DNA of 64,000 bases from Escherichia coli (GCF_024502345.1 NZ_JALDNN010000001.1), one strand, 5' to 3'; positions 16,774 through 46,580 are shown, counted from the first letter of the stretch. Notes: generated by a model not told the origin, from the letters alone. Numbers and translations are program-made.

Positions 16774-17906
16774 GACTGAAGATTCTCCGCAAGCCATGAT
16801 GCCAGTTCGCCCGGTGTCATGGCGGCTATTTGTGCGCCGACATTAACCAGCGCCTGGGCCGTATCGCGGTCATAGCAAGGCGTTGCTGTGCTATCGAGCG
16901 CCGCCAGTCCCAGCACTTTGATGCCGCTCTGGACACACTTTTTCACCTGATGCGTCAGCAATGATGATGAACCCCCTTCGTAAAAATCGCTCACGAGGAT
17001 AATGACGCTTTTTGCTGGTTGTTCAATAAGTTGCCGACCATATTCCACGGCACTGGCGATATTGGTCCCGCCGCCCAACTGTACTTTCATTAATAACTCT
17101 ACCGGATCGGCAACGTCTGCCGTGAGATCAACGACGCTTGTGTCAAACGCCACCAGATGGGTACGAATGCCGGGTAACTGCCACAAACAGGCCGCCATCA
17201 CCGCAGAGTGGATCACCGAGTCCACCATCGATCCGCTTTGATCAACCAGTAAGACCAGTTGCCATTGTTCACTGTGGCGTTTAATGCGGCTGTTAAAGCG
17301 GGGGGATTCGATATACAACTTGCCGTGTTGCGGGTGCCAGTGTTGCAGGTTGGCGCGCAGAGTACTTTTGAAATCAAAGTTTCGCGCCAGTGGAATAAAT
17401 GAGCGGCGACGGCGATCGCGGACACCAGAAAAAGCCTGACGAACTTCCTTTGCCAGTCGAGCCATAATTTCTTCAACAACCTGGCGCACTATCCGGCGGG
17501 CGGCAGCCAGTACTTCGGGGTTCATCAGATGTTTGGTGTGCAAAACGGCGCGTAGCAGACTTTCAGAAGGCTGCATACGTTCCAGCACGTCGAGATTCGT
17601 CACCACATCTTCAATGCCGTAGCGCAGTACGGCATCGCTTTCCAGCCGCTCAATCACCTGTTGCGGAAACAGCGTGTGAATACTGTTGATCCACTCAGGG
17701 GTGGTGAGATTTGAGCTACCTAATCCACCGGAACGTTCACCACGCTGGAGCCGTTCAGGATCGCGCCCATACAGCCACTCCAGCGCGTGGTCTATCTGCC
17801 GGGCGTTGTCATCCAGCCCACAAAGCGTCGTTTCTGCCGCTTCGCCAAGAATTAATCGCCAGCGTTGTAGCTCACGGGTGGTCAGAAGATCGTTCAGTTC
17901 AGACAT
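16770..17906 (-). CDS. yehP: von Willebrand factor A (VWA) domain protein
   Basis: MIDAS motif DQSGSM; ORF trimmed to MSELNDLL start, 5 bp from yehM stop. Confidence 0.85.
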   Translation of the reverse strand: MSELNDLLTTRELQRWRLILGEAAETTLCGLDDNARQIDHALEWLYGRDPERLQRGERSGGLGSSNLTTPEWINSIHTLFPQQVIERLESDAVLRYGIEDVVTNLDVLERMQPSESLLRAVLHTKHLMNPEVLAAARRIVRQVVEEIMARLAKEVRQAFSGVRDRRRRSFIPLARNFDFKSTLRANLQHWHPQHGKLYIESPRFNSRIKRHSEQWQLVLLVDQSGSMVDSVIHSAVMAACLWQLPGIRTHLVAFDTSVVDLTADVADPVELLMKVQLGGGTNIASAVEYGRQLIEQPAKSVIILVSDFYEGGSSSLLTHQVKKCVQSGIKVLGLAALDSTATPCYDRDTAQALVNVGAQIAAMTPGELASWLAENLQS

Positions 17907-20178
17907 GGAAAACTCCCCAGTTTTGCAGCGATGCCAGTGCCTGCTGTTCGAGTTGTTGATGATGTGCAATGGCTTGTGGTGGACAATGCAACGGCATTTG
18001 CAGCGCCGAAACGGGAAGTTGCGCCAGTTGATAATGCTCAAGCACCTGATGCGCCAGCGTCCCGCGTTCTCGTGGTGGTAGCCAGGCCATCGCCGCGCGT
18101 AAATCGGGCAGGGCATTGATAAAATTGGCATCACTCAGTTGATTTAAATGACTGCTGAAACCGGCGATAAATGCCGGCTGACAGGCCAGTTGATGGCGGG
18201 CCAGCGCCAGCAAACCGTGCAGCGCTTCGCCGGATTGTGCCGGGGATAACTGCGCCAGCATCGTCAGCGCCGCTTCGGCACTAGCGTTGGGATGTTCCAG
18301 ACGCATCAGTGCGCCAAGAGCCGCGCCGCGATCCAGCGCCGGGGCATGGATTGCCTGACTGCGTCGCTCCAGTAAGGCTACCGCCGCAGAAAGAGAAACG
18401 CCGGGTAAATTAACGCCGCTATATAGATCGCGCAGGATATGGCAAAGCGCCTGCCAGCTATGCATGTGAGCGTGAAACTCCTTTTCATCTGGTCTGCCGT
18501 TAGATTCACACAGCCACAGCGTGCGATCGATAGCCGCGCATAACGTCGTTTGTAATATCTGCGCGCCTTGCATACCGCTAATTTCATCCAGCCGCCATAA
18601 GGCATATAGCACTTCCAGCGCCTGGCCCATTTCGGCAAATTGATTTTCCTGGGCGATTAATAATGTGAGTTGCTCCAGTAATTGTTGACTGAAGGACGCC
18701 AGACCCGCTAACGCCGCCTGGCTAAGACATGTGGTGATACTGCCGATTCCACCCGCGTCCAGCATATCGGTTTCTAATTTATGGCGTGCGGCTTCCTGGA
18801 GTGTGGCACCAAAGCAGGCGGCCTCAATCAATGCCGCATGCTGGCTAAGCGGGCGGGTTAATTTCCAGCGTTCTTCACCGTTGCCTGCAAGTGTCAGTGT
18901 GCTTCCCTGCTGGCGTACAATCCCTGGGATCTCCAGTATTGCCAGCCGATGTAACACCTGACTTTGCGCTAGTCCATTGGGGTTAAAGCGATTTAAGGTA
19001 AGCTCCGCCGGAAGAGAGATTGCGGTACGTTCCAGTTCGCAGGTGACATCTTTTGGCAGAGGCGGTTGTGGCGTAGAAGGGGCAAGTTTACCGAATCCGT
19101 CACCCGCTAATGTGTCTATCAACGTTAGCAGAATCGGATCGGTATCGGGATGAATAACGCCGCGATAGCTCCATGGCAACGGCGCATTCAGGGATTCTTT
19201 AATCAGCGAGCCTGCTAAGGCATCCAGCCAGTCAGTGCGTAACGGTAGTGTATGACCGCGCAACTGTGCCAGCGCCATCGCATGCAGATGAGCGGCAGCC
19301 ATATCCGCGGTCGAAGCAGGCAAGTGGTGTTGGCGCAAACGGGTAAGAACCGTTTTTAGCAGTTGTTCTCCCGCCTGCTGTAAGCCCCACTGCCAGCACC
19401 AGCTTTGCCAGACCGGGGCAGGCATTCCTGAAAGGTATCCTGCCAGCACATCAAGGCGCTTTTCACTGTAGGGTGTGAGATAACAACCTGTAACGGCATC
19501 TGCCAGCGAGGGCAATTCTGGCTTGTTAATGTCCTGCGGACATTCGCGCCACATTTTTGCCAGTGCCGGAGCGTGCCAGCCACCGCAGACGACTAACACG
19601 TCGCCATTGTTTTGCTGCATCGCCCATGCAATCCAGCGGGCCATGAAGGCTTCGCGCTGACGATTGAGAGCATCTCCGGGGGAATCGCCCCGCAGTTGTG
19701 CAAAATAGTGCGCCAGCGCAGAGGGTAATGCAGTTTGCTGGCTTTCATCTTCGAATAAGTGATCCCACAGGGTATCGCTGTTATCCATGCGGGTGGCACG
19801 CAGCAGTAAGGTCTGGCTTTCATCTTGCGTATCAGGCGAATCGTTCTCTTCTTCACTCTGCGCCCAGCAAGGCAAATCGATGAAGTAAGTTTATGCCTGA
19901 ATACGACGTGCGGCTTGTAGCGCCTGCCACTCCGGCGAAAATTCAGCAAATGGCGTCCAGGCACCACGCCCGGGGGCCGCACCGTCCTGATACTGGCAAT
20001 AACTGTAAATAGCTACCGGAAGCTGGTGGGCTAAAAACAGTTCGTCTACCCGGTCATTAAAATCAGCCGGGCCTTCAATCAACACGTATCGTGGCCGCTG
20101 GCTTTCGATTAATGATTTGACCAGCCGGGCGCAGGCCGGGCTATGATGCCGGATGCCGACAATTAACGGCTCGCTCAT
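17899..20178 (-). pseudogene. yehM: yehM interrupted by in-frame TAA (codon ~97 of 760)
   Basis: ORFs 19891..20346 and 17899..19875 share one frame, separated only by TAA at 19891..19893; total span 2280 nt = 759 aa + stop. Confidence 0.75.
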
Positions 20179-20188
20179 GCATCTTTCC

Positions 20189-44900: not shown

Positions 44901-45697
44901 AACGAATTAACGCTCTGACGATTGCCGGTACTGATCCGAGTGGTGGTGCGGGGATTCAGGCCGATCTTAAAACCTTCTCGGCACTTGGCGCTTATGGTTG
45001 CTCAGTTATTACTGCACTGGTGGCGCAAAATACCCGTGGCGTACAGTCGGTGTATCGCATTGAGCCTGATTTTGTCGCCGCCCAGCTCGATTCGGTGTTC
45101 AGCGATGTGCGAATCGACACCACTAAAATCGGTATGTTGGCGGAAACCGATATTGTTGAAGCGGTGGCAGAACGGTTGCAACGGTATCAGATCCAAAACG
45201 TGGTACTCGACACCGTTATGCTGGCAAAAAGCGGCGACCCGCTGCTTTCACCTTCGGCGGTTGCTACGCTGCGCAGTCGATTATTGCCACAGGTTTCATT
45301 AATAACGCCAAACTTGCCCGAAGCTGCCGCCTTGCTCGACGCGCCACACGCGCGCACCGAACAGGAAATGCTGGAACAAGGGCGATCGCTGTTGGCGATG
45401 GGCTGTGGCGCAGTGCTAATGAAAGGTGGTCATCTGGATGATGAGCAAAGCCCGGACTGGCTGTTTACCCGCGAGGGTGAACAACGGTTTACCGCACCGC
45501 GCATTATGACCAAAAACACCCACGGCACTGGTTGTACGCTCTCTGCGGCGTTGGCTGCACTACGCCCGCGCCATACAAACTGGGCTGACACCGTACAGGA
45601 GGCAAAAAGCTGGCTTTCATCAGCATTAGCCCAGGCCGACACGCTGGAAGTTGGTCACGGTATTGGTCCGGTTCACCACTTCCACGCCTGGTGGTGA
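44897..45697 (+). CDS. thiD: hydroxymethylpyrimidine/phosphomethylpyrimidine kinase
   Basis: 266 aa; ATGA overlap with thiM. Confidence 0.95.
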
Positions 45698-45761
45698 GCA
45701 CCGTACTATAGCTGCTTTGGTTATTGTCAGCCTTTGGCACTGACATTCAGGGATGAAACCA

Positions 45762-46580
45762 ATGCAGCTAAGAATTACCAGTCGAAAAAAACTCACCTCT
45801 CTATTATGCGCTCTTGGGCTAATTTCCATCGTTGCAATTTATCCGCGTCAGACGGTGAATTTTTTCTATTCGACAGCAGTTCAGATTACAGACTACATCC
45901 ATTTCTACGGTTATCGCCCGGTTAAATCTTTCGCTATTCGCATTCCTGCCAGTTACACCATTCACGGAATAGATGTTTCTCGCTGGCAGGAGCGGATCGA
46001 CTGGCAGCGGGTGGCAAAAATGCGCGACAACGGTATCCGCTTATAATTTGCTTTTATTAAGGCGACGGAAGGCGAAAAGCTGGTGTACCCGTATTTTTCG
46101 CGTAACTGGCAACTAAGCCGCGAAAATGGCCTGCTGCGCGGGGCGTATCATTATTTCTCCCCGTCGGTAGCAGCGCCGGTTCAGGCACGATTATTTCTGC
46201 AAACGGTGGATTTCTCACAAGGCGATTTCCCTGCGGTGCTGGACGTAGAAGAACGGGGAAAATTGTCGGCAAAAGAATTACGCAAGAGGGTAAGTCAGTG
46301 GCTAAAAATGGTCGAAAAAAGTACGGGGAAAAAGCCGATTATTTACTCAGGAGCCGTTTTTTATCACACCAATCTGGCGGGCTATTTCAATGAATATCCG
46401 TGGTGGGTAGCTCACTACTATCAACGTCGTCCGGACAATGACGGCATGGCCTGGCGCTTCTGGCAGCATTCCGACCGTGGACAGGTAGATGGCATCAATG
46501 GTCCGGTGGATTTTAATGTGTTTAATGGCACGGTGGAGGAGTTGCAGGCATTCGTTGATGGGATTAAAGAAACGCCTTAA
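45762..46580 (+). pseudogene. yegX: GH25 lysozyme-family gene with in-frame TAA
   Basis: ORFs 45753..46046 and 46083..46580 share a frame; TAA at 46044..46046 just before conserved FAFIKATEG motif; span 819 nt = 272 aa + stop. Confidence 0.75.

Follow-up and report, generated by a model that had tools for sequence, protein, structure and literature searches.

A cluster of pseudogene lesions in the yeh-yegX region of an Escherichia coli gut clone probably reflects ordinary stepwise loss of dispensable genes

The window analysed here is a 64-kb stretch of the Escherichia coli chromosome (GCF_024502345.1, NZ_JALDNN010000001.1), colinear with positions ~2.165-2.226 Mb of K-12 MG1655, and our subject is a set of lesions in its yeh genes and in yegX. 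Gene order runs from yohC, pbpG, dld, bglX, osmF-yehYXW, mlrA, btsSR, yehSR, yehQPML, yehK, yehI, yehH and metG to mrp/apbC, yehEDCBA, rcnBAR, thiMD, yegXWVUT, fbaB, gatYZABCD-gatR and yegS. The nearest of 5426 complete genomes is PRO_A-1412-6M-A_ESBL (hereafter PRO_A), from human faeces in Tanzania, which, a recombinant bglX-osmF patch aside, matches the window at 99.9% identity. The genes annotated in PRO_A and K-12 were all mapped to the window, translated and compared codon by codon, and within ~29 kb we found six events affecting five genes: yehM, yehI, yehC, yehB (two events) and yegX (Table 1). Every remaining K-12 orthologue in the window keeps its full length, and ~45 genes are intact. 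The original prediction, made from the DNA sequence alone, had named lesions in yehM, yehB (a TAG stop and an insertion sequence [IS], IS903), yehC (IS1) and yegX and had described the neighbouring metG, mrp and thiMD as intact; each of these lesions is present at the expected position, and metG, apbC/mrp, thiM and thiD are indeed full length, but the list was incomplete, the sixth event, a deletion in yehI, having been overlooked.

Table 1. Features of the window, with positions counted from its first nucleotide (aa, amino acids; ORF, open reading frame; HTH, helix-turn-helix; TPP, thiamine pyrophosphate)
Feature	Position	Strand	Details
yehM pseudogene (DUF5682 protein, yehLMPQ cluster)	17899-20178	minus	full length, one in-frame stop at codon 96
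yehM codon 96, CAA>TAA	19891-19893	minus	plus-strand G>A at 19893; codon comparison
yehI, in-frame internal deletion	22895-25102	minus	1425 bp (475 codons) deleted; ORF 735 aa vs 1210 aa
yehI deletion junction	24559-24569		one surviving copy of 11-bp direct repeat AACGCTGCCAG
yehC (fimbrial chaperone)	33794-35244	plus	split by IS1 after codon 45
IS1	33929-34696	plus	768 bp; intact insA and insB' frames; 9-bp target duplication cagggaaac
yehB (fimbrial usher) pseudogene	35260-38806	plus	two lesions
yehB codon 189, TGG>TAG	35824-35826	plus	G>A at 35825
IS903 (IS5 family)	36319-37375	plus	1057 bp; after yehB codon 353; 9-bp duplication ggtgcgagc
yegX (GH25 glycoside hydrolase) pseudogene	45762-46580	plus	
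yegX codon 95, TAA stop	46044-46046	plus	CAG in all sampled sense alleles
OrzO-P antitoxin RNA (Rfam RF02083)	21389-21464	minus	99.9 bits
OrzO-P antitoxin RNA (Rfam RF02083)	21999-22072	minus	88.8 bits
ZorO ORF	21710-21799	plus	29 aa
ZorO ORF	22318-22407	plus	29 aa
Islet ORF	41816-42130		without family match
Islet ORF	42140-42487		without family match
HTH-like fragment in islet	43539-43778		
P2-like prophage tyrosine integrase	60423-61436	minus	
P2-like prophage HTH repressor-like ORF	61552-61923	minus	small early-gene ORFs on plus
Peptidase-S11 RNA motif upstream of pbpG	873-953		Rfam gathering score
TPP riboswitch upstream of thiM	43981-44077		Rfam gathering score
naRNA4 downstream of fbaB	51923-51993		Rfam gathering score

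The three stop alleles are clean. Each of yehM, yehB and yegX has one in-frame stop and is otherwise colinear with PRO_A or K-12, without indels, which makes them nonsense pseudogenes, and yehM has no further stop either. Judging the nonsense positions against close relatives, as had been proposed for these genes, proved informative: PRO_A, MLI023, NCTC9064 and K-12 have the sense codons CAA in yehM and TGG in yehB, and both stops are therefore derived. Allele prevalence was measured with 55-mers carrying the variant base at position 28, such that each 28-base megablast seed had to include the variant, and by this measure the yehM TAA and the yehB TAG were found in 0 of the 5426 complete genomes. 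The yehM stop does occur in two draft assemblies, GCA_050022275.1 and GCA_001484085.1, and on a second contig of the Sequence Read Archive (SRA) assembly SRR24000611; a look-up with the 95-aa YehM fragment gave only these three contigs as true carriers. Other contigs that matched the fragment were rejected as carriers, their genes ending at contig ends near codon 95-96, in one case with the start of the sense codon still visible.

The third nonsense allele, that of yegX, differs from the other two. All three had been taken for single-base changes, and this holds for yehM and yehB, but the yegX stop is a two-base change, CAG>TAA, relative to every sampled sense allele, and all sampled genomes outside the clade that carries it have CAG. 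Neither a TAG nor a CAA intermediate was found at 100% identity at this codon among the 5426 genomes. The TAA itself is present in four of them (PRO_A-1412, MLI023K1, MLI023K2 and NCTC9064), and the RefSeq annotation gives an "internal stop" for yegX in all three carriers inspected, PRO_A-1412, MLI023K1 and NCTC9064. The gene has two more substitutions private to this clade, nt 325 G>T and nt 648 G>A, which agrees with yegX having decayed before the other genes.

The deletion in yehI leaves the reading frame open, and because of it YehI is shortened to 735 aa. In PRO_A the missing segment is bounded on both sides by the repeat AACG(C/G)TGCCAG, of which a single copy (AACGCTGCCAG) is left in the window; flanking repeats with one copy at the junction are the marks of a repeat-mediated (slipped-mispairing) deletion, and we assign the loss to that class. 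An identical 735-aa product is found in three assemblies, the drafts GCA_050022275.1 and GCA_001484085.1 and the SRA assembly SRR24000611. The 55-mer queries for junctions (the yehI deletion and both IS insertions) can be seeded by a single flank or an IS end alone and are informative only as the absence of a full-length, high-identity match; read in this way, none of the 5426 complete genomes spans the yehI deletion junction, and none has the insertion junctions of IS1 in yehC or of IS903 in yehB. In the sister clade (PRO_A, MLI023 and NCTC9064; three genomes inspected) yehI carries a +1 frameshift instead of the deletion.

The remaining lesions lie in the yeh fimbrial operon, whose chaperone gene yehC and usher gene yehB are both interrupted. 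The element in yehC is an IS1 by its size, its terminal inverted repeats (GGTGATGCTGCCAACTTACTGAT and GGTAATGACTCCAACTTATTGAT), its insA and insB' frames, both of which match the NF033558 IS1 transposase, and its target duplication, and it is 99.9% identical to an annotated IS1B-family copy. Both of its junctions in yehC are present in GCA_050022275.1. The element in yehB is an IS903, recognised by its length, its terminal inverted repeats of the 18-bp class (GGCTTTGTTGAATAAATC), a single intact transposase ORF matching NF033579 with 357 bits, and its 9-bp duplication, with 98.7% identity to an element annotated as IS903B family. There is nothing unusual in the elements themselves: as in other cases of insertional inactivation by IS1 and IS903, they are typical, full-length copies at AT-rich sites with 9-bp duplications. 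The G+C content is 40.8% in the fimbrial operon and 44-46% at the insertion sites, compared with 49.4% in the window. The yehB stop is shared by GCA_050022275.1 and five contigs from the SRA or metagenomes, of which one bears the label human gut metagenome, and the stop and IS903 are separable: GCA_050022275.1, ERR12816393 and ERR3153747 have the TAG without the element, and SRR32878073 has the TAG together with IS903 at the same site.

Two further observations concern yehB. A human gut metagenome contig, ERZ915402, matches 35129-35992 followed by 36319-36443, and in it the left end of IS903 joins yehB 326 bp upstream of the insertion in the window; the join may stem from a deletion that IS903 caused next to itself, from a separate insertion or from chimeric assembly of the metagenome contig. 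The 5' part of yehB has derived same-strand G>A changes at 35391, 35462 and 35825, within 435 bp, the last being the stop, and when 38200 is also counted, the density of derived single-nucleotide polymorphisms (SNPs) is higher in yehB than in the rest of the region. The idea that four clustered same-strand G>A changes within the initial 570 bp of yehB represent a single mutational event or an imported patch was rejected: O157:H7 has the window's base, an A, at 35509, so the polarity of that site is ambiguous and the cluster is down to three.

The original prediction had cautioned that sequencing or assembly artefacts and engineered stops should be excluded. In favour of such an origin, the three stops are clean substitutions without neighbouring damage, and those of yehM and yehB are missing from the complete genomes. 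Identical alleles are, however, found in independent data sets: the yehM TAA in two assemblies and one SRA run, the yehB TAG in one assembly and five contigs, and the yegX TAA in four complete genomes. Over the 11.5-21 kb shared in the yehI-yehM region, the loci of GCA_050022275.1, GCA_001484085.1 and SRR24000611 are 1-3 SNPs from the window, and the contigs of all three end in the left end of IS1 at the identical yehC site; a second contig of GCA_050022275.1 starts in the right end of the same IS1 and has the yehB TAG and the yegX TAA, without IS903. GCA_001484085.1 (LLYC00000000) is strain ccpm3961, isolated in 2015 from a healthy preschooler (PMC7133007). The clone has been met in China and in several SRA or metagenome runs, and the sister genomes come from Mali and Tanzania; the sources of the relatives are a healthy child, human stool and human gut metagenome contigs, with no pathogen or laboratory stock among them. 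Since the same alleles recur in independent assemblies and metagenomes, artefact and engineering are excluded for practical purposes, their probability being negligible, and the lesions are genuine natural alleles.

The distribution of shared and private alleles among the relatives also gives the order of events. The yegX stop, common to the clade of PRO_A, MLI023 and NCTC9064, came first. The yehI deletion, the yehM stop, the IS1 insertion in yehC and the yehB stop are private to the window's clone and occur in all its members, which places them second. IS903, present in only part of the clone, came last, inserting into a yehB that was already dead.

In our judgement these observations are probably explained by ordinary decay, in which a natural clone from the human gut lost dispensable accessory genes stepwise, in its own lineage and through standard mutation, with little or no opposing selection. 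The six events are independent: two G:C>A:T stops (yehM and yehB), a CAG>TAA change (yegX), a repeat deletion (yehI) and two transpositions (IS1 and IS903). Three of the six fall in yehEDCBA, where the first would have killed fimbrial assembly and left the later hits cost-free. Yeh fimbriae have been described as "functional but cryptic" and the operon as "intact or disrupted" at the same locus, being intact in 92% of strains (PMC3559732), and an AT-rich operon encoding cryptic fimbriae would be both a favoured IS target and weakly selected. In K-12, H-NS/StpA repress yehL and yehM, which escape this control only in hns/stpA mutants (PMC3686432); with yehLM silenced in this way and yehHI and yegX without known function, losing these genes is likely to be close to neutral in the gut.

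The same loci, furthermore, have decayed independently in other lineages, the genes concerned being yehI, yehC, yehA, yehQ, yehK, the gat genes and yehM-yehL-zorO. Such parallelism could also be read as a sign of adaptation, in which the loss of Yeh fimbriae, yehLMPQ and yehHI was itself selected, for example as the shedding of a surface antigen, a phage receptor or a costly system. The fimbrial operon has been inactivated in unrelated lineages, by IS1 in yehC of Res13 and by IS1 in yehA of O104:H4; yehI has been lost twice in one clade, by a frameshift in the sister and by the deletion here; lineages 2 and 3 of Shigella sonnei have a ~7-kb deletion that takes out yehM-yehL-zorO (PMC12795559); and three hits have accumulated within one operon. 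However, neutral decay combined with a preference of ISs for AT-rich DNA predicts the same pattern, and a second or third hit says nothing about selection once the operon is dead. Yeh is intact in 92% of strains (PMC3559732), and most of the genomes sampled here have unbroken yeh genes. A search of PADLOC-DB 2.0 (E <= 0.01) gave no match for YehL, YehM, YehP, YehQ, YehH, YehI, YehK or YegX; yehLMPQ with yehHI was accordingly rejected as a known anti-phage defence system, and nothing supports a costly defence role. We regard selected loss as quite unlikely.

Changes were polarised over ~44 kb by comparing the window's clone with its sister (PRO_A and MLI023), with NCTC9064 and K-12 as outgroups. 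There are 19-20 derived SNPs on the window's branch, 18-19 of them at G:C pairs and 12-13 being G:C>A:T transitions; both single-base stops are of this majority class, which is the one that turns CAA, CAG and TGG into stops. Laboratory mutagenesis was considered as a source of the bias and rejected: the bias is similar on the sister branch, where G:C sites account for 13 of 17 changes, and the alleles are carried by wild isolates. The coding changes comprise 3 synonymous, 12-13 nonsynonymous and 2 nonsense on the window's branch and 6 synonymous and 7-8 nonsynonymous on the sister branch, and two nonsense changes in 17 match unselected mutation (P = 0.21). To this extent the earlier view of independent lesions in non-essential genes under weak or absent selection agrees with the data. 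The dominance of nonsense changes over frameshifts, which had been thought unusual, is a small-number effect: stops and frameshifts stand at 3:0 here, with P = 0.125 against the 1:1 ratio of the sister genome, whose eight sampled pseudogenes comprise 3 stops, 3 frameshifts and 2 truncations, and the prevailing G:C>A:T changes are of the kind that creates stops.

A high nonsynonymous fraction is expected at very recent divergence, before purging by selection, and Rocha et al. (2006) reportedly found high ratios of nonsynonymous to synonymous changes (N:S) to be normal in that situation. Being expected, the high nonsynonymous share is not by itself a sign of a special lifestyle, and on so short a branch it would represent recent mutations awaiting purging.

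To judge the density of lesions, we took as a baseline the same ~48 kb in seven other E. coli lineages. K-12 has lost yehH there (with gatC and a gatR interrupted by IS3 just beyond the region); the clade of PRO_A, MLI023 and NCTC9064 has the yehI frameshift and the yegX stop; Res13 has its IS1 in yehC at a site that differs from the window's; O104:H4 adds a gatZ frameshift to its yehA insertion; MEW has a yehQ frameshift; LD67-1 has a yehK frameshift and a gatY stop; and DY612 has no pseudogene, with IS903B and ISEc35 in the yehL-yehK spacer. The number of pseudogenes per lineage is thus 0-2 (mean 1.3), often in the same yeh or gat genes, against five in the window (Poisson P ~0.01). In the sister genome, two 50-kb stretches picked arbitrarily each yielded 3 pseudogenes, among them vgr and ligB with internal stops; at that density ~1.55 would be expected per 29 kb, and five has a P of ~0.02. 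A genome comprises ~160 windows of this size, and a few of them should be similarly affected. Given 0-2 lesions elsewhere and ~3 pseudogenes per 50 kb in the sister, the excess here is modest, and an exceptional density is not supported.

The original prediction had gone further and seen in the cluster a host-restricted or laboratory-adapted lineage. In its general form, this explanation posits genome-wide relaxed selection or reductive evolution in a lineage whose effective population is small or whose niche is narrow, as with Shigella, host-restricted Salmonella or a strain kept long in the laboratory, with pseudogenes and ISs accumulating everywhere. Five genes lost within 29 kb against a mean of 1.3 agree with it, as do the N:S of 14:3 on the window's branch (the nonsynonymous changes including rcnA, yehY and btsR), the recent activity of two IS families, the 37 matching places in the related PRO_A for a query holding IS1 and IS903, and the pseudogene density of the sister genome. 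The other 35 kb of the window are nevertheless free of lesions, and the intact genes include the gat, yegTUV and osmF-yehWXY operons; the nearest relatives are commensal gut isolates of several countries, joined by gut metagenome contigs, and neither pathogens nor laboratory stocks; the high N:S is usual at recent divergence, and its contrast with the sister is not significant; and the lesions have built up in at least three stages, with no burst. The attribution to a host-restricted or laboratory-adapted lineage thus finds no support, and we consider genome-wide reductive evolution unlikely.

Some points do weigh against ordinary stepwise loss. Five affected genes in 29 kb are 3-4 times the regional baseline (P ~0.01-0.02), and a lineage-wide rise in decay may be part of the explanation. 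The N:S ratio is higher on the window's branch than on the sister's, at 14:3 against 8:6, although the difference is not significant (Fisher P = 0.23). The part given to AT-rich or H-NS-bound DNA as a preferred target of IS1 and IS903 comes from the literature on these elements, and the pseudogene evidence from the source isolate is that of this 64-kb window only. Neutrality of the losses, finally, is an inference. It is conceivable, if quite improbable, that the clone is at an early stage of genome-wide reductive evolution, with IS1/IS903 activity and an uncorrected G:C>A:T load, or that the loss of Yeh, yehLMPQ and yehHI was positively selected; were either true, the clone would offer a natural system in which to study how a commensal begins to specialise.

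Set beside known cases, the finding is of a familiar kind, namely ordinary decay of dispensable genes by common mutational routes. The lineage-specific pseudogenes of K-12 (yehH, gatC and gatR::IS3) and the S. sonnei deletion (yehM-yehL-zorO) affect the same or neighbouring genes, through the same mechanisms, and are likewise lineage-private; unlike them, the window has five genes affected at once, ~3-4 times the usual regional number, and its alleles, save the yegX stop, are in none of the 5426 complete genomes. The disrupted "core-associated" cryptic chaperone-usher operons of Wurpel et al. 2013 (PMC3559732) share the conserved locus, the role of ISs and truncation, and the "disrupted" class, but the window has three lesions in a single operon (IS1 disrupting the chaperone gene, and a stop as well as IS903 in the usher gene) and their order is resolved. 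Host-restricted enterics such as Shigella spp. and Salmonella Typhi also combine nonsense changes, deletions and ISs in accessory or surface genes with a high N:S; in contrast to them, the window has its relatives among gut commensals, its flanking operons are unbroken and, in a comparison made from 64 kb, it carries lesions at a density far below that of Shigella.

The result matters little beyond bookkeeping and opens no new question. The cluster of stops and ISs, including the overlooked yehI deletion, is real and owes nothing to assembly error or engineering, and annotation pipelines should therefore mark the genes concerned as pseudogenes. The case further provides a worked example of pseudogene lesions piling up in a dead operon, their order resolved by relatives, and strengthens the view that many E. 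coli lineages can do without the yeh clusters.

Other parts of the window deserve brief mention. Of the window's 97 differences from PRO_A-1412, 55 are concentrated in the 2.2 kb at 5000-7200 (3' end of bglX to osmF), which marks a recombination patch; NCTC9064 is likewise recombinant over 7.3-21.6 kb and within metG. The yehL-yehK spacer (21351-22459) holds a tandem zor-orz type I toxin-antitoxin locus, a locus that is mostly missing in K-12 and deleted in S. sonnei and the place where DY612 has its IS elements. At ~21633, in the gap between orzO and the first ZorO ORF, the window is one base short relative to every relative, including the near-identical drafts, and the missing base could be a real mutation or a sequencing error.

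An AT-rich islet (~36% G+C; 41705-43977) lies between rcnR and the thiM riboswitch and is missing in K-12, and NCTC9064 has an extra IS1 there. Colinearity with K-12 stops where the latter has the cryptic P2 remnant PR-X (ogrK, yegZ), and over 60335-64000 the window enters a P2-like prophage. In the gat operon, gatC is full length (451 aa; 55124-56479), and the gatR region (57667-58446) has a 259-aa ORF without IS3; in K-12 gatC is frameshifted and gatR interrupted by IS3, so that in this part the laboratory strain is more decayed than the window. The Peptidase-S11 motif, the TPP riboswitch and naRNA4 are expected features.

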